A stretch of 55,873 nucleotides of DNA, filler included, from Streblomastix strix (lineage: Eukaryota), in assembly GCA_008636045.1 (NCBI GenBank). It is 3 parts of 3 records of this genome, joined end to end, with 100 filler letters (N's around TTAATTAATTAA, not from the genome) between each part and the next. Parts side by side here need not be neighbours in the genome. Positions count along the whole stretch, not along the records: positions 1 to 18,560 come from SNRW01000595.1; 2 more parts are not named here. The stretch is one strand, 5' to 3'. Of the stretch, positions 11,972-55,873 are shown in pieces. The notes under the pieces are model-generated. The model was not told the origin of the DNA, did no database searches, and saw only the letters and a list, made by a program, of their open reading frames with translations. Every line of letters begins with the position of its first letter. The first letter of the stretch is position 1. Position numbers and translations under genes: made by a program.

Positions 11972-13243
11972 TCACAAAATTACACACCCGTCCTTTTTCA
12001 GGCAAACACTGATAGCATTGTCAAATGCTTCTTTTACACCTAAAATTAATAATATCATTACATAAATAGAATGTTAATATAATTCAATATTATATATTAC
12101 CCATATATATAACTAAATACATAACATGATATATTAACAAAACCTTGATTGTATTTTGCACTGCACTCAACATAGTTTGATGCCCCAATGTCCTTGGCCA
12201 TGTTGTAGCCTTCTTCGACTCTCACAAACTCATGCTGTGTAGTGGGTGTGATCTATTATATATTATATATGAATAAGTTTATATTATTATATAATAATAA
12301 ATTAATAAATATAAAAAATTATCAATTTATTATTATTTAAAATTAAATGAATTTATTATCAAACTGATTTTCTCAGATCTCCTTTAGTTCCAACAAGAAC
12401 TATTTTAGTCTTTGGGCCAAGACTGGAATATTAATTAATATATATGTGTGTGTTTAATAAGTGATTAATTAATTAATAAATATTAGCTTTCGGAATGCAA
12501 ACCGTTTTTTAATGTCTGGTACCCATTTAGATTTCACATTTAGGAAAGTGTCTCTCCTGTTAATGGAGAAGCAGACAATGAAGACATCAGTGTTTTCGTA
12601 TGAAAATGGTCGAATTGCATCGTAATCTTCTTATCCTGAATGATAGAAATAAAAATTAAAAGGAAAATATGGTTTGTATTTTAATTTGAAATTAAATATC
12701 GAACCAGCAGTATCCCACAAAGACAGCAGCACTCTATCACGGCCAACTGGCACTCTGCATGTATAGTTATCAAATACACTACATAGAATAAATGAAAAAT
12801 ATAAAATTAAAAATAAGGCTAGAGTAAATAAAAAGGAAACAAACGCTAAAAGTTGAGTATATCACATGAAAAAGGAGGCAAATAAAATTATTCACAAATA
12901 AATAACAAATAAGATGATATAAATAAGAAATAATTCATATACTTGGAACGTACTCTACAAAGAATTGAGAAATGGAAGGTAAAATAAATAAATATTTAAT
13001 AATCAAATTTACGTGCGTTAGAGTTTACCTTCGGGATATTTATTGTTCGCATATACTATATAAAGTGGAATAATTTAAGAAAATAAATAGAATAATAGAA
13101 AAAAAGTAGCACACCCATCAAAAGACATGTTTTACCGACTGCACCGTCACCGACAATGACAAGTTTTAACTGTTATAAAAATTTGAAAAATGAAATGGAA
13201 TAGCCATAAATAATATGATTACAACCTTTGTTTCAGTAGCCAT
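11972..13243 (-). CDS. Rho/Rac-family small GTPase, 9 exons including a 12-nt exon (12943-12954) and a predicted 1-nt exon (12845)
   Basis: Spliced translation: [43 protein letters not shown]...[31 protein letters not shown]...KWVPDI...[11 protein letters not shown]...YVECSAK...VKEAFDNAI...GCVIL-TGA. Has G1-G5 boxes and a CaaL prenylation box. Confidence 0.96.
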
Positions 13244-13621: not shown

Positions 13622-15693
13622 TCATAAGAATAGAATGACAGTGACACGTAATTTTCCATTTTTCACGAAGCCACTTCCTTCTTTCAAACATTATGGTTTG
13701 AGTTTGTACCAAGTTCCCTGATCAGGAGCTAATTGGTTGAATGTATGTTTAATTTCTTTATAAATTATTATAAAATTTTTAAAATATTTATAGAATTAAA
13801 AAAGTAATATGAAAATAAACCTATTACTACTGGATCTTATTTCTCTTAATGAATCAAAATCTGAAACTTGAACTTCTGGCTAAATTCTTCACCATGCTCA
13901 TCAATACTCTTCAGAAATACCAAAAAAGTTATAAATAATAATAAAATAAGTGAATAAGTTTAATATTAAAAATTATATTTTAATCATTTTTATACCTTCA
14001 ATACGAGGAATATTCCTTGTAGTTCTTATTATTAGTAATAACCTTTTTCTATTTTATGTACAAGAAGGATGTTCCTGAGAAAGGTAATATAAATTGAAAA
14101 AAATAATATGAAAATAAATATATTATTGCTCATACCATTTAAAGCCAAACGCATCAAAAGTCTCACTTTCATTGCGATCTGATAATGGATCGATTGAAAT
14201 TGTCAAATCATGTTAAATATTTGCATCACTTGGTTACTTTTGAGATGAATGTTCATTTTGATGAGTTTCATATTAAGAGAAAGGAATTTTCAAATGGCAG
14301 GAATCACATTCGATAAGAGACATATCAGGAGTATTCAATGAAGATTTTGTTTTAGGTTGAACAATTGGAAATGGATAAATTTAGCTCTTTTTATTAATTT
14401 TCTTATCCGATTGAACAATTGGAAATGGAATAATCTAATTCTGTTGATGCTATTAAGCAGTTTTATTTAATTATTATATCACTTCAAATTGTTATTAAAC
14501 TTATTCTTTTTATTGTTATTCATTTCTTAGTTGATCTTCGACTTATTTCATTCGTTCTTCATCTTCAATCTTCTGACGTTCATTCAAATGAGCTCTTTCT
14601 TCTGCTTTAATTTTTTCTTATTCAGCAACTCTAATTTATTCCTATAAATGTCTTATCTGTTCTTAATCCTCATGAACAGTAGTTTCTGAATCAATCTTTT
14701 AATCTTCCTAATCTTCTTCTTCATCTTCTAAAACTGCAAGAATTTATTTTATTGAATTTCTTAATTACCTTGGCGGGTTAAGTAATTTGACTTTATTTAA
14801 ACAAATTCTCAATTTAGATGTTTTCTTTACAGCTTCTGAACTCGTTAGAATCAGTTTTGATACCACTTCCAATATATTCAACAAGATGTTTTATTATATT
14901 TGGGAATGTTATTGAATTGATTATGATTAAGCTGAAGGAAATGCATTATCCAATGCTTGTGCTGATTTGCCAAATATATTAACTTCCAACAAACAAGAAA
15001 TTGTGTGTGGTTGTCTTTTTATCGCATCAAGAAGTGCCTATTTTCCCAAATCAGATATTCTTTCATCCTCATTCTGGTTAAATTAATAATTTAAATTAAA
15101 TTAAAAATAAAAATAAAAATGAGACATACGAATAAAAATTCAATCAATAGTTGAAGAAACGTTTTCCAGTCAACTTATGATTCAGATTCTGTTCCAATCT
15201 GATGAAGTATGTGTAATATTGCATCACAGAGGGTCTATATTATTAAAATATTATAATCTGAATAAAGAAAATTAAAAATGTTTTCATACACGAATTCTTG
15301 GATTATCAGTTTCAAATATCAGTGAAGAAACAGATTAAATAATTCCACTTGAACACAAAATCTCTTTTATTTCGCTATGTTGCACTGAATAAAAGATATA
15401 AAATAATAAATAAAATAATAATAAAATAAATGTCCGTACATCTGAAGGATAATATAACTAGGCTCTCTAATGACTGAATTTTAGCTGCATCGGATATTTC
15501 TGGAAGTAATAAACGATGTGCATGTTGAACAATCTGCGACTTTTTCTGAAATAAAATATTAAATATGATTTATAAATTAAAACTTTGAGATAATCAATAT
15601 TTATACCTCGCCACTAGAAAGAACTTGTATTCTCATTGATTCAGAAGGATTTGTACTGCTTATTCCTCTTAAAGAAATATCAGAATCAGTCAT
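13622..15693 (-). CDS. ARM-like N-terminus + coiled coil + C-terminal MATH (TRAF-like) domain protein
   Basis: ATG at 15693 and phase-consistent GT-AG introns. The C-terminus SETFDAFGFKWNILL...GIFLVL...KFQILI...HTFNQLAPDQG...GFVKNGKLRVTVILFL-TGA matches the MATH beta-sandwich pattern by eye. Confidence 0.75.
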
Positions 15694-16391: not shown

Positions 16392-16733
16392 ATGACTCAG
16401 TTGTTGACTATGAAACTAAATCGTACAACTGGACTCGGAACCCTCACACTCGGGTAATAAACATTGCGATGTGGAGGGAAACCTGGATTCGATTATCCAG
16501 CTGACACAACTATAAATGCCTCTGATCGTAAAGGTACCGTTAAAAGCCGAGAATACGATGCAACTATGCCATATGCAGTCCTCTGGATTGGACAAAGAGG
16601 TGTTTATTTCCACGAATGGCCGAATCTAGAAGCATCGTCAGGATGTATTCATCTGTTGCCAGGCGATGCTTAAACTTTCTATGAACAGTGGATCACGCGT
16701 AAGACGAGAATTGTCTTCTCTTGGACCAATTGA
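16392..16733 (+). CDS. L,D-transpeptidase catalytic (YkuD-like) domain protein, 113 aa, intronless, bacterial type
   Basis: MTQLLTMKLNRTTGLGTLTLGQQTLRCGGKPGFDYPADTTINASDRKGTVKSREYDATMPYAVLWIGQRGVYFHEWPNLEASSGCIHLLPGDAQTFYEQWITRKTRIVFSWTN. The SREY..MPY...FH...S.GCIHL...A..FY pattern is that of small YkuD proteins. Three in-frame TAA codons are read as Gln. Confidence 0.75.
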
Positions 16734-16857
16734 TGGATAAATTCTTTCAATGTGAAAGCTTTTTGACAATTAAAATTATTCGAAATATATTGGACTGTAT
16801 AATAAAATATTGAATAATAACTCACTTTATTAACTTTGCTAAATAAAACTATATTTT

Positions 16858-17458
16858 TATTGTTATTCATTTCTTAATTGATCTTCGACTTGTTTCATTC
16901 GTTCTTCAACTTCAAAGTTCTTACGTTTATTTAAATGAGCTCTTTCTTCTGCCATATTTTTTTCTAATTCAGCAATTCAATTATCTTATCTGTTCAAAAG
17001 TGTTTTAACTCAATTGCATATAAAAAAGATTATGATAAATATGAAGAAACTGCCATTCATACAGAATTAATAGAGGAAATTGAAGAATCTGTCATTCATA
17101 CAGAATTAATAGAAGAAATATTTCCAATTGGTAACATCTTCACGTAAATCAGAAGTAATACATATGAAACTCAGAGCTGATATTGTTTTTGCCATTTATT
17201 ACATCATAATTTCAATGTTTTAATCAAAAAGCTGTTATTGACCAACTTCTCCATATTTTCCTTCCTTTGCATAATTTTAAAGATTCTTTATTAATATTCC
17301 AACATTTCTTTCTAAAACTTCTATGCATAAATCTAGTATTTCATTTTCAATTATTTAATTCTTCATGATCTGAATATTATTTTAGCTGAACTATTTTCAA
17401 TTTTACTTAAGTCTGCTATCTGTAGAGAAGTTGTATTAGCCTAAAATCTTTTATCCAT
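16858..17458 (-). pseudogene. Degenerate chimeric gene fragment: ARM-like family piece plus a diverged copy of the coiled-coil segment of the MATH gene
   Basis: About 16858-16975 is a diverged copy of about 14511-14628. The upstream frame IIENEILDLCIEVLERNVGILIKNL resembles LIDENILKICVDIIVQNGKALVNKL of the gene at 44105-45592. Frames are broken by TGA. A 39-nt tandem duplication lies at about 17052-17120. Confidence 0.45.
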
Positions 17459-17637
17459 CGCAAATAAAAACACAAAATAGCTAATTTTTGGAATATAACT
17501 TACAATTTTCATTAATATAAATCTTCTTATTATAATTAACATATATAAATTTAAAGAGGTTGAAAAAATATTTATTTGATTTCTTACTTTTTATTAGCTC
17601 ATTAATTTTTTTATTTTTATTTTTTTTAGAAAAATCA

Positions 17638-18560
17638 ATGATTTCGCACTCATCTCTTGTTATATTAATTTTATGTACCACTGATGCTTTTGCCAGACTA
17701 ACTTTTCACCCGAAAGTAAACGCTGACTCACTTTCTGAAACATTTGACTGGCGCACCAGGTCAAATGAAACAGGAACCGCATTTACGTCAGTTCTCGATC
17801 AAGAATCTTGTGGCAGGTATATTATTTTATTAATAACTCAATTTATTATATCAGTCATTTATTCATTATAGTTGTTGGGCCTTCTCTACTGTAGATGCTG
17901 CTAGAGTTTGGCTGTAAATAGCAACGAACGGAACAGACGAAGCTGTAAAAGCGCCAATGTCTCCGTAACATTAATTAGATTGTGATAAGCGTAATATAAA
18001 ATATTATGGAGAAAATGTAACATAAGGTATATAATTAATATAATTAATAATTTTATTTATTTTTTATTTAAAGCTGGTTGTGATGGCGGTTTTATTCTCA
18101 CATCATACAGAGGTATTGAATTTTTAAATTACTCATATTTAAATTATATTATTAATATTGAAACTTCCATATTCCACAGAGCTAGCTTGGGAACATGGTA
18201 CATTAGAGAATCAATGTCAGCCATACACTGGAAGATAACAGTCAAAATGCGCAAACAATTGCACAACAACAACTGCAAACTCTAAAATATACAAGAAATG
18301 GTCAAATGGAACAAACTACTATAGACCAATCAACTTCTGGTTATATGATTACAATGCAGACGTCGACTATAGTTCTGTTGGAAAGGCTAACAAAGAGTAC
18401 AATTCGAATACAAATGCATAGTATGTATGGCCATTGGTCAAACCAAGCCACATTACTGATGTTTTTAAGGAGATCATCTACAACTGCGGTCCTTCCAGTG
18501 TAACATTTTATGCATGTGACTCATTGTCATACTATTATTCAGGTTCTGGTGAGAATATAA
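17638..18560 (+). CDS. Papain-family (C1A, cathepsin B-like) cysteine protease, 3'-truncated at contig end
   Basis: Hydrophobic signal peptide, then FDWR, DQESCGS|CWAFS (catalytic Cys motif split by an intron), SPQHQLDCD, GCDGG, CQPY, IIYNCGP. Three GT-AG introns. Confidence 0.9.
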
Positions 18561-18660
18561 NNNNNNNNNNNNNNNNNNNNNNNNNNNNNNNNNNNNNNNN
18601 NNNNTTAATTAATTAANNNNNNNNNNNNNNNNNNNNNNNNNNNNNNNNNNNNNNNNNNNN
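18561..18660. other. Artificial contig linker (N run with TTAATTAATTAA)
   Basis: 100-nt block of Ns around TTAATTAATTAA (18605-18616). Genes on both sides are truncated at it. Confidence 0.97.
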
Positions 18661-37218: not shown

Positions 37219-37318
37219 NNNNNNNNNNNNNNNNNNNNNNNNNNNNNNNNNNNNNNNNNNNNTTAATTAATTAANNNNNNNNNNNNNNNNNNNNNNNNNN
37301 NNNNNNNNNNNNNNNNNN
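37219..37318. other. Artificial contig linker (N run with TTAATTAATTAA)
   Basis: Same 100-nt linker as at 18561-18660. Confidence 0.97.
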
Positions 37319-46551: not shown

Positions 46552-47508
46552 ATGGCGTGTTATCAAGGTTCCAAATTTATTACCGATTTCGATAATAATG
46601 AATCAAAATATGCTGAAATTAGTTTTAATAAAATTTAAACTTAATTAAATATGAATTAATAAAGCATTCAAACGATTTAATAATCTGCGAGGTAGAAAAT
46701 CCCATCGAAATCATTAGGAAAATTGATAATTTTTTATCCGTTCATACACTTTGAATGTGTGCGTTGAATCTTTAGCAATCAAATGAAGTAGAAAACAATT
46801 AACACTTTGAAATTCACGATCAAGAGGATGTTGATGGAGATCTGCAAATCATAACTTAATCTTCGTATCCATTTATTTCCTTACTAATCGCTAATTAAAA
46901 AAAAAGTGATTTTACTCAATTCAACAAAAAAAAATTTATATAGATATTTTAATTTAATATATGCAGTTAATGCAGAATGTTTTGAACACATCATGAAGTT
47001 TCTTCTTTGACCAGAAGAACGAAAACTAAACACAAGATTTGACTGGCAAAGATGTTTGTCTCTCACCACAGAAGATACTCAGCACCTTCGAGTATGTTGA
47101 AAACTTCTGGATATATGCTTATTTATTTATTTTACCTCATTATTCATACAGTAATTTTTTCGTTGTTGTGCCAAGCTTCACGCGAATATCGCAACTGTAG
47201 ATAAACTTGGAAACTATGTAAATCTGCACTGCCTCGGAGAGAAGAAATATCTAGTGAAACTGTGGGAAGATTTACTTCTTTCAACAATTGGAAAAAAGTT
47301 CCTTGAACTGCATGTTGTTAGAATTGAATTGAGCACTCGAGTGAAAGAAGATTGTCTTACAATTTTGTGTAAACAATCTTAATGCGATGCGCTTCACAGT
47401 CAAAACTCTGAATACATGCTATAACAATAAACAAAAAGTCTTATTTTTATATTAAAAGAAAAAATTGATTTTATTGATCGTCACTTTTATAGTTTTAAAA
47501 TATTGTGA
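46552..47508 (+). pseudogene. Degenerate intron-containing gene running from the palindrome spacer into the right arm
   Basis: Coding-like frames in the spacer, a GT donor at 46865-46866, an AG acceptor near 46966 and a second intron at about 47092-47151. In-frame TGA codons prevent a clean model. Confidence 0.35.
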
Positions 47509-47599
47509 TTTACAAATCATCTTTATTGGTTTTGTTTGATGGATTTTTCATTTTCTGTTCAACTCAAATTTCAGTTTCTTTTTCTACATCATTTAATTA

Positions 47600-49087
47600 T
47601 CAATATTATTCAAATTTGTATTATTAGTTATTTTTAAAAGCATTCAATAATATGTTCTTCGTTAATCCAATTCTTTCTTCATAAACAATCCAATCTTCTT
47701 AGATGAATAAAAGAGAATCGATCTCTTCCATTCCACCCTCAATCTCAATTGACTCTCCTATTCTTTTTAATAATTACAAATCATGCTTATTTGATGGTTC
47801 ATAATTATTATATAAGTGAGTAAGATTCTGATATAACTGGCTGATTGCTTCTTCAACAATACACCAATGTTATTCTTTGCTTCCTCCTCCTACACAAATT
47901 GAACTTATAATAACAGAAATATATCTTTATTCATATAGTTGTTTTATCAGAAATAATGATTTCTCGTCTTTAAGTATGTAATAAAAGCATTTCAGACTCT
48001 TTTATCGAATTAATGGAGGTTTTTCGATTTATTACAAGCTATGATCAATGAAAAGTTAGTATTTCGTTAATTTTTCAAGTGATTCGAATAGTCCAGAAAT
48101 AGAGAATGCAATAGATTAATATCTTAAATCGCATAGTATTAATAAAAGCAGTCCAAGTGCATAAAATGCCATAAATTCAGATGGATTTGTTTGCACATGT
48201 TTATTCAAAGTATATTAGACATTTGAATCATTTTAAGAGAAATAAATCTATGCAAAAGATATGATTGTAGATGCAACATGAGCAAGGATGTTATGATCAG
48301 CAACTAAGAAGTCTTCAATTTATAAAATATTGAATTAAATGCGATAAATTATACCATAAGCTGCTTCTTTCAATTAATTAACAAATGGAGACAAGTTTAA
48401 CGGTATGTTCATTGCACAATTCAACACAATTGGACAGTTCAGATGAATCAAAGGTGCAAACAGCTGCTGGATTCTAGTGCTCGCTAAATATTCCATGTTT
48501 TGATATTATAAATATGTAATGCTGTGGATTATATTTATTCCTCTCTTTAATGCTGATTCCGATTTAATTTCATTCTTCAATGTATAACTACTGATTTATG
48601 AATGACTATTATTCATATATTTCAGCTTATTAACAAGTGCTTTTCCATTCTAAACTATGATATCAACACATATTTTTAAGATATTCTCATCAATTAAACA
48701 TTCTTTTTTCATTAATAGATAAATACAAACTAGTTAGGAGTCTATATTTGAAAATGGTATCATTATTTTCTTTTTTCTTTTCTTTTTTGTGTCTACTTTC
48801 TTAAGTATTTGGTGTTCAACAAAAGATATTAATTATGAATCTTAAAAAATCTTCAAATATATGTTATTATCATCGTCGGAATAATTTTTTATTCCTCGAA
48901 ATGCAATAATTTCAAGATTGTTAAGAAGTGAATGTTGTTTATATGCCAACGATTCTCTAAGACTCGCAATAATTGAATTACATTGTAGTTTAACAATGTA
49001 TTAATTAAATTTGCTAATATTCAGTTCAGAATTATAAAGAGCTATGTTGTTCTGCAAAAAAGAAGAAAGTGACTCAAAATTTAACAT
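47600..49087 (-). CDS. Mirror copy of 44105-45592
   Basis: Reverse complement within the inverted duplication. Confidence 0.7.
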
Positions 49088-49969
49088 CGCGTAATTACGT
49101 TGGATTCAATTATCTGATTTATCATAAAAATTATTTTAATAAAAAGTACATATTAAATTAATAATAGCAAAATTGTGAATATTGATATAAAACAAATGTA
49201 AATTATAAAATTATATAAGAATTTAGAGTTTTAAATTATAAGTATTATTTTAAATATGATAGTGAGGAAAATAGGTTAATTATTTATAATATTAATCATA
49301 TTCTTATAATTTATTAGCGTCTACATCAAGTGTCTTATTCAGCAGAAGGCATAACACCTTATAAATCTGATATCGTAATATAAATAAAAAGAAAGAAAAT
49401 AAAATAAATATTTTGAGTAATAAATTAATGTAAGATGAGTAATTTAAATATAAAAATCATATCAAAAATATTATTTTATGTAAAAATAAACAATTATATA
49501 AAATTATACTAATTGTATATAGAAATAAAGCAGCTTTTATGAAAAAAAAGAAAAAAAAATAATAGTTAATTAAATTGATTGTTGTTCTAACTTAAGAAAT
49601 TAATATATAAATTAGGTATATATAATATTATATTTAAAAATTAGTAAAATATTAAGCAATTAAAGAGATATTTAGCTATGAAGTTTTCTCAAACAAAGGT
49701 AAATTATAAATATATTCATTATACAATATTTAACCAAGTATTTATATATCATTACATTAATCACTTACAAACATTGTTTCGAATTCGGTTGAATGCGCAG
49801 ATCAGAAATTTAAATAAAATCTCTTAAAATATTGATTAATTATAATTGGATATTTATAATAAAATTAATTTACTAAAAAATAGATTATACTATTAAGCAT
49901 GAAATGAATAACTAACTGTTGTTCAAAAATGAAAAATAGAAAAAACTGAATATGCAAAACTTGTCATAT

Positions 49970-50653
49970 TCAGATTGTTATAATGAAGTGGTTAAGTGTT
50001 ACTGCTTTGGCATCGTTTGCCCTACACTTGATTTCACCATAATATCCTTTATTTTTCATTTAAGCTTCGATTTCTTCATATGCTCCTTCTTCTTCTATTT
50101 GTTCTTCAGTATTTCGAACAAGTAATGGAAGTGGTTGGGAGATATGCTTCCTATAATATCTACCTTCATGTAGATCTTTGAGGAACCTGTAGATGCGATA
50201 TAGTCCATGTTCAATCTCCTCATCCTGTTCTTCGCCGACGCCTCCAGCTGTGCAGAATGAAATGCAAATCATTCTTCCAAATCCTTAATTAACAAGTTCT
50301 GATTGTACTTATTCATCTCCAAAGAATCGAATCGAACTAAGACAGTCTCTACTGCTACTTCTGACTGTAAATATCTATCGATCTATTTCTTAGCCGATGT
50401 GATTACCAACTTTGTATAATGAAAGTGTTGATAGTGATTGATGAATCTTCGGAATCTGAATCACTTATTTACTCGTATTAATATTCCGGATTTGATCATT
50501 TATTGATTTAAGACAAGAAGAAATTTCAGTCAAAGAAGATATAGAATCCGATTTTTATTACTCATTTTGTTTTCCTTGCTTGATCTTTGTGTATGAATCA
50601 GTGAAAGAAATTATGGCATTCGCTGCATTTTAGATTAAATAGTCGGATTCCAT
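49970..50653 (-). CDS. Mirror copy of 42539-43222
   Basis: Reverse complement within the inverted duplication. The ORF track shows the identical peptide. Confidence 0.8.
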
Positions 50654-52905
50654 TTTATCCGTATTCTTTTAAAAATAAAAAAAATAAATATGATAATTAT
50701 AAGAGAAAGAATAAAAAGTAGGTTATTAGAAACATAAAATATGTGGAAATGGCAGAAAAGAGCGTTTTTAAAAGAAAAAAAATCTATTTTTCTGGATAGG
50801 AAACATCATGTTTATGATGAAACTTGTATAAATTTAAGTGACTCACCTACAGAAGTTGTCTACAAACTTGTTAAAATTATATTTGGTAATTTGTAGCATT
50901 TGCAAGAAGTGATATTATGTGAAATATTTTGAGTGAGCTATTAAGAAGCGAATAAAGTTTGAAGTAACTAAATTTCTTGAGAAATAGTTGTATAAATTAA
51001 ATGATATAGTCAACAAACATCTACTTAGTGTTCTGAAATGTTGTTTAGCCACATTTTATAATATTATAAATATACTTCGCACAATAACTTTTAAATAATA
51101 TTGAATATATAATTATATAAAATTATTAAATAATGATTGAAAAAGCCCATATCGTAGCAAATTTATATTTAGTTAATTGGTAAAATCGAGTTATGAACTT
51201 TGAATTTTTAAAGTTTTTTGCACTTGTCTAAGATATCGGTCTTAGTTGATTTTTAATAATTTTACATAAGTTATTTCATTTAATTCAAATTTAGTTTACT
51301 TTTTATTTTTAATTGTTATCCACTAAACAGTATATTTGTTTAATTCTATAAATTTCATTCTTAATATTAATTCAATTTAAATTTATTTCTATTTATTTTG
51401 ATTAATAGCAAATTAGAAAAAACAAAATAAAAAAAATAAAAAAAAAATAATCAACCATCAAATAAACATTTTCCAGTTTATAGTAAATAAAACCCAAATT
51501 CTGTTTTTAACACATGATAAAAACCGATTATTCCATCATCAAATTAATAATCAGTTTTAAACAAATTTATTCTTAAGCGAGAAATCGCAGCTTCATAATA
51601 ATTAAATTAAACTCATTTTAACTATTTTTCATCACAACAATATCTAAAAATATTCAATCTATTTAATTAATCAATGGTATATGTACATTTAAAATCCATT
51701 GCATCTCATTATTTTTTATTACATAAAAATAAATGAAATAATTTGTTGAAAATAGTTCATTTACCAATTTTTTCTGTTAATAATTATTCTATGGATTACA
51801 AAAAAAATTTATAAAAACAAAAGAACGTATTCATCAAAACATTTAGAGGAGTAGCAGGAAGAAATTGAGCGTATATGTTAATATATTGAAGAGCTAAAAA
51901 GTATTATTAAAAGAAAGACATTAAGTGATCTAAATCAATAGAATATAATATGCACTAACAAGATCTGAATAACCAGCCACAAATAGTAGAATTATTAATT
52001 GGAATACTTAATAATCTAAAGAATTATTGCACGAAATCGTAAAAAAATCAATGGCATTCATCTTTTTAAACTTTCAGTTACATAAATTATTTTTATTGTT
52101 TCATTCGTTTGCTTCTTGTATAAATTAGAAAGGATGAATTTTGTATTTAAATTTGTAGTGAAATTCTAGGTGATTAGAAAACAAGATTAAAAATGAAAGA
52201 TGACTGTTAACTTTATTCCAATGTAAAAGTAAATGGAGTATTGATCTCAAATGAAAGAAACAGATTCTCAGGAAAAGAATGTATTGGGTTTGAAGACGAT
52301 GAAAATGTAGCAGTTCAATTTGAAATTGTAACTGTAAAATAAGAAAAATATTTGGATCAAAATAAACAGAGTTTTACACAAATGGAGTCAGATTTTTTCT
52401 TTCCCATAAAATCATGTATTTTTGGTAACTAGCAAAAACAGTCTAATAACTTTTATTTATATTAATTTAATGGTAATTTAATCGAATTTTAATATAATAA
52501 AAATAACCCCAAATTTTTTATTTATTTCTCCATTTCAAAATTAACAAAATTGTATTTAATTTATTAATCTATTATAATTTAAATAATTAATAAATTTCAT
52601 ATAATTCACTAATATCATTTATAAATATTATTGTATTATTAAAATTGAACATTGAATATTAGAGTTTTCAACTATTTCAAAATAATTCAATTTTCTAATT
52701 ATACAATTTGAAAAATTAAATTATAATATAGCAAATTAAATGTTCACATAAATATAAGTAAGATAATTACACTAGAATTTAAATTATATATTTGGTTAAT
52801 CATAAATTTAAAATTTTTAAAATTAATTCATTTATTTTTAAATTTATTTAAAAAAAACTTTTATTTGCGAATTTATTACTATTCTAAATAGGATAACAAA
52901 AGAAA

Positions 52906-55246
52906 ATGATTCTAACAGATAAACTACTAACATTTGTATTAGGTAAAGCAACTAATAAAAGCTTTTCAGAATTAAAATTCAGTACTAGAAAATATTTTTC
53001 TAAAAGATTAATTTAAATTTTAAACAAAATTACTAAGAATAACACTAAATCTTTGTTGCAATTTATTCTTAACTACACTAAAATTGGTAAATCGATTAAG
53101 AAAGATATGAACAATCAAATTAATAATGAAAAAAATTCATTTTTATAATATGCATCAGATTATTACAAAGAATTAAATGGAAAACATAAATAAAAATTTC
53201 TACTATTAATATATTAATTAGAATAAAAAACTAGAACATTAAATGAAAATGGATTTCATTTGCACTTTTATACAATAAGAGATGCAAAGAGATGGCAATT
53301 ATAATAAGAAACAAAAATTAATCATAAAAGTAATTATAATTAAAAAAAATTTAATGAAATAATTTAAACAATATTGCCATACTGTGAGCTATCAAACATA
53401 ATTATTTGGATATTGAAACATTAATTTAATGAATAAGAAGTTTAAATAAATTAATAAGAAATGATTAAAGATAAAGATGAAAGTGTAATTAAAGATAATG
53501 ATTAAAATAATTAAGAATTAAATGATAATGATTAATTATAAAATTTTGATTAAAACTTAATGAATAAAGATTTTGATATTAATAAAAGTTAAGAATAAAT
53601 AATGAAAATAAACGAAAGAAATAAAAAAAAATCAACAAACATTTATAATAATTTATTAAATGCAAGAAGAAATATATAATCTAAATAATATAAGTAAAAC
53701 GTAAATGAATAAACAAGTTAATTAAATTTAAAATAATCATAAAATTCTACTTCTAAATAAAATAATTTTAATATAATATCATCAAATTTAACATCTTAAA
53801 ATAAATTTAAAATTAAATCCCTGAATCATTTGTTGCAACTCCTCCATCAAATAAAAGCGTTGTGAAATAGGATTATCATTAATCAACTCCAAATTATTCT
53901 CCAATGTTATTAAATAAATAAAAATCTTAACTAAAGACTTCTGAATCTTATAATGAAAATAATTAAATTAATCAAATTGAAACAGTAGTAAATATCAAAA
54001 GTTAAATTTAAATGAAACAGTAAAGCAATTCAATGTTTTCTATTTTAACCCCAAATATTTAAAATAATCTAAATAGTAATGAATAATTACATCCAAAAAG
54101 GAAATATTAAATGAATACAACTAAATATGAGAAATATAATGTATTAATTTCAATATATACCAGGGAAGAATTGTACATCCTTTACGTAAATCGAACTGGC
54201 AAATCAGCAGTATCATTCACATTATTTAAGATTATGTTAAAAGGTAGAATCTAATATCCAAAAAGATCAACTGATCTTTGCATTATTTGTTAATTGATGA
54301 AAACCTTTATGAATTCTGAATAGGATATTTAGAACACACAATAGCAAAATGAATAATTAATTAGTGCAATATAACATAGAGAAGATAAAATAATTTAAAG
54401 ATAATAATAATAACATTTATTAAACAATCTAAATTAAAATGAATACATAATTTTATCTGATTTTTCCGAAAATCTTCGCCTTGGAATTAAAAGATTTTAA
54501 TTATCTCCAGACTTCTATTAATATATATCCGTCTCTTTATTAACATTTATAATATAATATAAATAATAATAACAAATTAAATAAATGATATATAATTATA
54601 TTAGTTATTGTTAGAATAAAGATGCTATTTTTGTAAAAGATTGTTTTGAGCACTTAATGCAAACCTTTCCACTACCATTCTAAAAAGTATACTTCTATTC
54701 TGACAATGGAACTCCTTTTAGATCATCGATTTTTTAACATTTATTATTATCTCCATCTTCAAATATTTCAAAGAAATATGAAATAACTTAAGCCTTCTCT
54801 GTTCCTGGACATTCAAAATCTTATTGTGATTAGCATTTCTGGTATCTTAAAAGGAAAATTAGTAGAAAAAGTATGAAATCAGAAATAAATTCTATTGAGG
54901 ACTTAATTAAACAATATAAGAGATTGATTCAATTGGAATTAATACAAAATTATAATTTATAAGATATGAACGAACAGCAGGAGAAAGATTAGCATCAATT
55001 CTCTGTATTGAAGATCAAATGAACTACTTATGTTTAAAATAAATATAAGGAGAAATTAGAGCAGCAAAATATATCGAATAAGGTGAAAATAAATTTATTG
55101 AAATAGAATATAATGAACCACTTTAAATAATTTTAAGTATTTAAAATAAAATATCTCCTCTTTTAAGCAAACCTAAACCATCAAACTAATTAAGAATAGT
55201 AGGAACAAGATCCGTTCAGCCTCTACTGTTCAGAAATAGCTGGTGA
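52906..55246 (+). mobile_element. Frameshifted Sola-like DDD transposase (right-arm copy)
   Basis: TDLCIIC, IILSDFSENL (D at 54459), VYFYSDNGTPFRS (D at 54702) and FSVPGHSKSYCDQHF (D at 54828). Apparent frameshifts near 53800 and 54900. Confidence 0.7.
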
Positions 55247-55747
55247 ATAATGAATATTATCATTATTTTAATTAAAATTATTAATTAACTAAATTTTATT
55301 CATTTAACTTCAATAATTTTATGCAATAAATTATTAAATAATCAAATTTTGTAATAAATTCAGAAAATTTATAATTTATTTCATATTATCATAGAAAATT
55401 AACAAAAATTTAAACATTATATTAGCTAACTATACTCAATTCGAATCCTTCTTAGATATAGTTTATTTATTCTTTATGATTAAATATGTTATATATAGTT
55501 TGATAATGAATATAAATATAAATTAATATAATTGCAATAATATTCGATATATACCTGATATATGAGATACTTCTCTGTCAAGAAGATATGGATCAATCTT
55601 AAGAATAAAGAATATTTAATATAGAATATGTTATTAATATTATGAATTTAAATACCTAAAGAGGCTTGAGTACATCATTACGATCTATAATCTAAAAATA
55701 AATTGTAATAATTATAAATTAAAAAAGTAAAATGAAACAATAATAAG

Positions 55748-55873
<126 letters not shown>

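Follow-up and report, generated by a model that had tools for sequence, protein, structure and literature searches.

YkuD-fold enzymes, which form a thioester when their His-activated Cys attacks the L,D bond linking residue 3 of a tetrapeptide stem to D-Ala4, are treated as bacterial. A short gene of this kind in the genome of the oxymonad Streblomastix strix, read in a first-pass annotation as a bacterial-type L,D-transpeptidase gene naturalised in a eukaryote, raises the question of whether it truly belongs to its host, where it came from, and what such an enzyme would do there. The window analysed, a stretch of 55,873 nucleotides, is made up of three contigs joined by linkers (N44-TTAATTAATTAA-N44, at 18561-18660 and 37219-37318). 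The gene lies on contig 1 (1-18560) and, because the contigs are separate, genes beyond 18560 are not its neighbours. Its features, and those of the genes around it, are collected in Table 1.

Table 1. The YkuD-fold gene of Streblomastix strix and its surroundings on contig 1 (positions in the window)
Feature	Position	Strand	Remarks
Rho-type small GTPase gene	12376..13243 (low coordinate approximate)	-	AG-ended spliceosomal introns; TAA at conserved Gln of GQEDY
Upstream host gene, multi-exon	13625..15693	-	matches P0140 (labelled Streblomastix strix, weak MATH domain)
YkuD-fold cysteine peptidase domain gene (protein P0001)	16392..16733	+	intronless, 113 aa, stand-alone, table 6, TGA stop
In-frame TAA pair, Gln22 and Gln23	16455..16460	+	relatives here mostly Gly, Lys
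Predicted catalytic His74 codon CAC	16611..16613	+	invariant, 26/26 aligned relatives
Predicted nucleophile Cys85 codon TGT, in S-S-G-C-I-H	16644..16646	+	invariant, 26/26 aligned relatives
Third in-frame TAA, Gln94	16671..16673	+	relatives here mostly Lys
Broken duplicate of the upstream host gene family	16854..17500 (end approximate)	-	stops, frame changes

The open reading frame was confirmed to be intact, and it contains the stretch FHEWPNLEASSGCIHL quoted in the first-pass annotation. It is open only if TAA is read as Gln, at codons 22, 23 and 94 (translation table 6). To our knowledge no prokaryote or phage reads TAA as a sense codon, and the need for three such readings assigns the gene to a code-6 eukaryote, whatever the status of the contig join. 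Two of the three TAA codons fall at positions where relatives mostly have Lys and, TAA being one base from AAA, they are likely to have arisen inside a code-6 host. The same code is found independently on the contig in the Rho-type GTPase gene, 3-4 kb from the YkuD-fold gene, and the reading of TAR as Gln in Streblomastix has been described in the literature (PMC13002328, excerpt). The earlier view that the gene is written in the host code, and is not simple bacterial contamination, is thus borne out.

Base composition is less informative. At 43.6% GC, against 27.1% for contig 1, the frame is indeed richer in GC than its flanks, and it ranks first among 904 windows of 342 bp (mean 26.2%, s.d. 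5.5); but a host fragment of the ribosomal-S5/uS5 family on contig 2 reaches 41.6%, so that high GC content says little about origin and is a weak marker of transfer. The GC3 value of 0.36 lies inside the range of host reading frames (0.19-0.42). Around the gene, no target-site duplication or terminal repeat was found beyond short AT-rich chance matches, and no paralogue was found elsewhere in the three-contig window.

The gene had also been described as flanked by intron-containing genes, which is correct for the multi-exon gene upstream but not for the immediate downstream neighbour, a broken duplicate whose segment 16854-16982 shows an 89% DNA match to 14507-14636 in the upstream gene. Two tandem 39-nt copies, 92% alike, lie within this duplicate at 17042-17119. 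Beyond it, an intron-containing gene on the plus strand (17638-18560) is truncated at the contig end; its scanned exons gave no Pfam match, and by eye it resembles what we take to be a papain-family (cathepsin B-like) protease. The broken state of the downstream neighbour might be held to favour an assembly chimera or a silent relic, as might a 9,015-bp inverted duplication on contig 3 (37319-55873; 37319-46332 against 46859-55873, 99.99% identity), which is likely to be a product of fold-back amplification or an assembly artefact and is a sign that amplification artefacts occur in this assembly. At the 5' edge of the frame, no contig among the matches listed from one run bridges by at least 31 bases; the low cover of 16440-16586 in run X1 counts neither for nor against. 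On the other side, the frame requires TAA to be Gln three times over, its conserved columns are intact, and one run contig from a termite gut metagenome, covered to much the same depth as the pieces next to it, joins 200 bases of the frame to 60 bases of the AT-rich 3' flank; this run may be the source sample, which would make the bridge at the 3' edge not independent. Taken together, a chimera or a relic is very improbable.

Assignment of the protein to the YkuD family was upheld by several methods. It scores above the Pfam cut-off for YkuD (PF03734; 25.8 bits against 23.4, E 1.8e-5), and a Pfam scan at E up to 1 returned besides this only a sub-threshold match to BfiI_DBD, with none to DUF2778; there was no NCBIfam match. 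Structure prediction with AF2, from an 11-row alignment, gave a model of pLDDT 94.9 with the YkuD fold, in which a single domain begins at residue 1. In a Foldseek search with this model the matches listed were LD-transpeptidases alone, many of them carbapenem adducts, and the ESM Atlas likewise pointed to YkuD (0.96). A structure search of 48,161 chains placed 4xvo first (Z 13.2, rmsd 2.0 over 103 residues); the top 20 rows were all of YkuD fold, and the first unrelated row had Z 3.8.

The predicted catalytic residues His74 and Cys85 are kept, in register with solved enzymes and, by profile alignment, with the mycobacterial LD-transpeptidases. Ser82 is also present, Gly84 is invariant in 26/26 aligned relatives, and all 26 members of the alignment (A2) match YkuD. 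A pattern H-X7-S-x-G-C is common to 28/28 clade proteins, in the Streblomastix protein taking the form H-X7-S-S-G-C-I with a gap of 10 residues between His74 and Cys85. The Ser that replaces His of the canonical HGC motif, singled out in the first-pass annotation, is real but not peculiar to this host: it is the commonest state at that position among the 28 clade proteins (Ser 10, His 9, Ala 7, Lys 1, Met 1). The protein retains 29/30 columns conserved at 90% or above, 30/36 of those conserved at 60-90% and 17/46 variable columns, and its leave-one-out profile score of 170 bits sits within the clade range of 123-182, so that the gene looks to be under constraint as judged from these alignments. 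By profile, fold and site it is a member of the YkuD superfamily, lying outside the canonical spacing and export features, and by profile it is not a Tlde1.

The absence of an evident signal peptide was likewise confirmed by a hydropathy screen: the N-terminus has no hydrophobic stretch (best 9-residue value in the first 30 residues, 0.9), and the same screen found a signal peptide in 0/28 clade proteins. This invites the suggestion that the enzyme is a repurposed cytosolic cysteine peptidase or transferase, acting not on peptidoglycan but on a peptide of the host or on some small metabolite that bears a D-amino acid. The very short loop, the occurrence of the protein in protists of different diet, and the His that follows C-h in 28/28 clade proteins, against Asn in 5bmq, would all be in keeping with such a role. 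But the YkuD-fold matches are all wall-acting enzymes, and the CIH motif is shared by bacterial relatives in the subfamily (81/98 motif-bearing non-clade rows), some of them fused to wall-lytic domains; we consider a cytosolic role of this kind unlikely.

The protein proved to have close relatives. A first search gave 12 candidates and, among these, 11 proteins that are 51-79% identical to it. The best full-length match (P0002, 68%) is listed in EukProt under the chrysophyte Epipyxis; this is a transcriptome-type record and could stem from a culture contaminant. A representative search added to the picture with 91 proteins. Of 138 proteins, 30 were set aside as partial and 2 more as duplicates; in a quick tree of the other 106, by domain, the Streblomastix protein fell in a group of 32 rows (SH-aLRT 95). 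The same group comprised 19 rows in a tree of 44 rows, a chosen subset from which P0063 and P0064, both on long branches, were omitted (SH-aLRT 95.6, UFBoot 100), and received 93 in another quick tree. Proteins of this clade are about 110-120 residues long and have no signal peptide.

Only three of the 19 rows have a known origin, and all three are protist: the oxymonad, Epipyxis, and the sole locus returned by a metagenome scan. The last (L001) is a contig of 2,473 bases and 22% GC, with eight copies of CCCCAAT at one end and the complementary repeat at the opposite end, and it encodes an intronless homologue of 111 residues with a GC3 of 0.14. This repeat is the telomere of rumen ciliates (10.1101/2022.01.05.474053; PMC6211341; both in excerpt), and its presence at both ends makes it very likely that the contig is a ciliate nanochromosome. 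The same telomere-capped contig carries, on the minus strand at 1001-1273, a fragment of a DegT/DnrJ/EryC1/StrS aminotransferase. The scan yielded this single locus despite several clade members from JGI and so was not exhaustive.

The remaining 16 of the 19 rows are unlabelled metagenome proteins. One of them, P0016, has a GC-rich-looking composition (GARP/FYMINK 1.89), and bacterial members of the clade may exist. Named bacteria, namely Microcystis and a Bradyrhizobium plasmid, lie outside the clade, with 78-86 bits on the clade profile. Within it, the group containing Epipyxis has support of 85/64, and the three protist rows are not grouped to the exclusion of others. With this branching, a single origin followed by spread from protist to protist and several uptakes from an unsampled bacterial group are both compatible with the tree.

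Several individual sequences deserve mention. P0011 (JGI, 67 residues) is 79% identical to the Streblomastix protein and ends directly before the conserved Gln of WIGQRG; it may be a second code-6 copy clipped by a standard-code gene caller, or may simply have met a contig end. By eye, P0028, P0058, P0122, P0124 and P0125-P0134 show frame changes, AT-rich-looking tails or mid-domain starts, which could be spliceosomal introns, and hence eukaryotic hosts, or sequencing errors. P0064 and P0138, from a source labelled 'merc' that is presumably a marine eukaryote catalogue, stand outside the clade on long branches and possibly represent a separate eukaryotic acquisition.

A donor was sought widely. 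Among 185,579 species genomes of GTDB no true clade member was detected, with scan patterns that match just 18/28 clade proteins; the sole hit (L002, Bacteroidales) was another frame of an unrelated 576-aa gene, in a genome without a profile match. The Bacteroidota, to which the ectosymbionts belong, gave no donor among 401 sampled genomes, 67 of which had a distant LD-transpeptidase match (best 44.8 bits). Phage records yielded 0/50,697 and plasmids one distant hit in 72,556. A single-sequence scan found no viral relatives, and 15 viral-contig loci at 30-33% identity over part of the query were set aside, having no clade-profile score at E 1e-3. Among the papers listed by literature searches, titles and the beginnings of abstracts disclosed no eukaryotic YkuD enzyme, and supplementary tables of lateral gene transfer may already list the gene; neither 'YkuD' nor 'transpeptidase' occurs in the excerpts of PMC12612818 and PMC13198582.

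These results bear on a different history for the same enzyme, in which the gene belongs to an unsequenced bacterial lineage and was taken up independently by the oxymonad and the rumen ciliate, Epipyxis being contamination. Such a history draws on the 16/19 rows without known origin, some of them on contigs of 10-63 kb, on the presence of Microcystis and Bradyrhizobium in the wider family, and on the failure of the protist rows to group exclusively. It is opposed by the empty or distant outcome of the genome, phage, plasmid and Bacteroidota searches and by the wholly protist identity of the rows of known origin, and we regard it as doubtful. An ultimately bacterial origin of the gene is nevertheless likely, and to that extent the idea of a naturalised bacterial gene survives; what does not is a one-off uptake from a bacterial donor, given that protists supply the nearest relatives whose origin is known.

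In the wider family the domain often stands at the end of longer proteins, fused forms having been seen only through the representative search. Recognised partner domains were found in 3/33 longer relatives (eCIS_core, Amidase_2 and a sub-threshold NlpC/P60), the other 30 having no recognised lytic or effector partner, and to judge from these domain architectures the three are a weak pointer to attack and not upkeep. Many bacterial-type relatives among P0030-P0086 are 220-260 residues long, with an N-terminal region of about 100 residues without a Pfam match. The Bradyrhizobium copy (L018:5548-6261) is plasmid-borne; a very large hypothetical gene precedes it, and IS elements lie nearby.

While the gene, its code, its fold, its conserved site and the clade are matters of observation, the activity can only be proposed. 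Our working proposal, on which we remain evenly divided, is that a host-encoded minimal YkuD enzyme, from a clade protist in so far as origins are known, acts by LD-carboxypeptidase and D-amino-acid exchange chemistry to trim bacterial peptidoglycan peptides and not to cross-link them. Once activated by His74, Cys85 would attack the stem peptide at the link from residue 3 to D-Ala4 and give the thioester. Since the protein has no anchoring or wall-binding domain, and has a short His-Cys loop like that of Tlde1a, the acceptor for this thioester would mostly be water or a free D-amino acid, leaving tripeptides. Given the lack of a signal peptide throughout the clade, the substrate would most probably be wall fragments of engulfed, dying or attached bacteria, or else would be reached by a non-classical route. 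The source of the gene would be a patchy, effector-like bacterial subfamily, and several lineages of protists that eat or host bacteria would later have handed the gene on among themselves or retained it. The trimming reading is plausible; against it speak a fold nearer to that of cross-linking enzymes than to that of Tlde1a, and the difficulty of seeing how a cytosolic protein would gain access to peptidoglycan.

Two other roles had to be weighed against trimming. The first is that of a true cross-linking LD-transpeptidase that shapes or supports the walls of the host's ectosymbionts. The best fold matches are cross-linking enzymes, and Streblomastix is covered in ectosymbiotic bacteria (PMC13002328; PMC2717939; both in excerpt); but the protein has neither a signal peptide nor a wall-binding domain, its motif spacing falls outside the canonical range, and the relatives in a chrysophyte record and on a rumen-ciliate contig imply a role not specific to this symbiosis, all of which makes cross-linking improbable. 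The second, put forward in the first-pass annotation, is the binding of beta-lactams, the active Cys serving as a sink for carbapenem-type compounds and so protecting the cell or its symbionts. The many carbapenem adducts among the fold matches could be cited in its favour, but acylation by carbapenems is a general property of the fold and not evidence of role, and nothing at the locus points that way; we know of no beta-lactam target in eukaryotes. This suggestion found no specific support, and its probability is minimal.

Returning to the trimming enzyme, we extend the proposal only tentatively to a protist-borne family of minimal LD-peptidases, derived from a bacterial effector-like subfamily and present across metamonads, ciliates and stramenopiles, that would provide eukaryotes with a D-amino-acid-directed cysteine peptidase for paring down or weakening the walls of symbionts and prey, with no need of classical secretion. 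Its spread would possibly have been by protist-to-protist transfer. The point of interest is the clade shared among protists; the gene itself is real and is of the YkuD superfamily. The wall-degrading toolkits of protists described in the literature, in the portions consulted, consist of lysozymes, NlpC/P60 peptidases and amino-sugar enzymes. A signal-less YkuD protein of about 110 residues in an oxymonad, on a rumen-ciliate chromosome and in a chrysophyte record would, if true, extend that toolkit by a new class of enzyme, and the clade would be a clean test case for gene sharing between protists. The protein is close to the smallest form of the YkuD fold and easy to express, and it would reveal the activity of the bare domain; in Streblomastix it gives a testable way into the host's treatment of its covering of bacteria.

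Among known systems, the actinobacterial LD-transpeptidases are the closest in structure. LdtMt1/2/3, 4xvo (M. smegmatis) and 5bmq (Stackebrandtia) match the fold with Z 11.6-13.2 and rmsd 2.0-2.6 over 102-105 residues, nearer than Tlde1a (Z 7.8) or Csd6/Pgp2 (Z 9.5), and have His...S-x-G-C in register. They share only about 20% identity with the Streblomastix protein, which has no Ig-like domain, LysM, lipoprotein anchor or signal peptide. Canonical LD-transpeptidases have 14-17 residues between His and Ser where it has 7, and it differs further in that its clade varies at the His of HGC and that it is probably encoded by a eukaryotic nuclear gene. The gap in 5bmq is also short, so the spacing does not exclude activity.

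The T6SS effector Tlde1a/Tae5 (DUF2778) resembles it in being a stand-alone YkuD-fold protein with the motif Ser and a short gap between His and Cys (9 residues against 10), where canonical enzymes conform to HX14-17[S/T]HGC (10.1101/2020.02.18.954545, excerpt). Tlde1a is an LD-carboxypeptidase with D-amino-acid exchange, and its toxicity was seen in tests in which it carried a periplasmic signal (10.1101/2020.02.18.954545; PMC9638812; both in excerpt). It is 13% identical, the Streblomastix protein lacks a DUF2778 match, and the difference in length (172 residues against 113) would leave no room for the capping insert of Tlde1a. Nor is there a secretion system or immunity gene beside the locus, the neighbours being eukaryotic host genes. 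Csd6, Pgp2 and Bd1075 are alike in fold (Z 9.5-9.9) and in the proposed reaction, but are only 11-13% identical; the Streblomastix protein has no NTF2-like accessory domain and is not a periplasmic shape enzyme.

Compared by description, the Tox-LD-peptidase of polymorphic toxins (PMC3482391, excerpt) is a C-terminal LD-peptidase module, and one relative of the Streblomastix protein has eCIS_core; RHS repeats and an immunity gene are absent here. The NlpC/P60 enzymes of Trichomonas vaginalis (PMC6299479, excerpt) have an unrelated, papain-like fold, are secreted, with signal peptides inferred, and have demonstrated activity, whereas the Streblomastix protein is known from sequence and model. 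They are nonetheless bacteria-derived cysteine peptidases of a wall-acting family in another metamonad, and so provide a protist precedent for acquired wall hydrolases.
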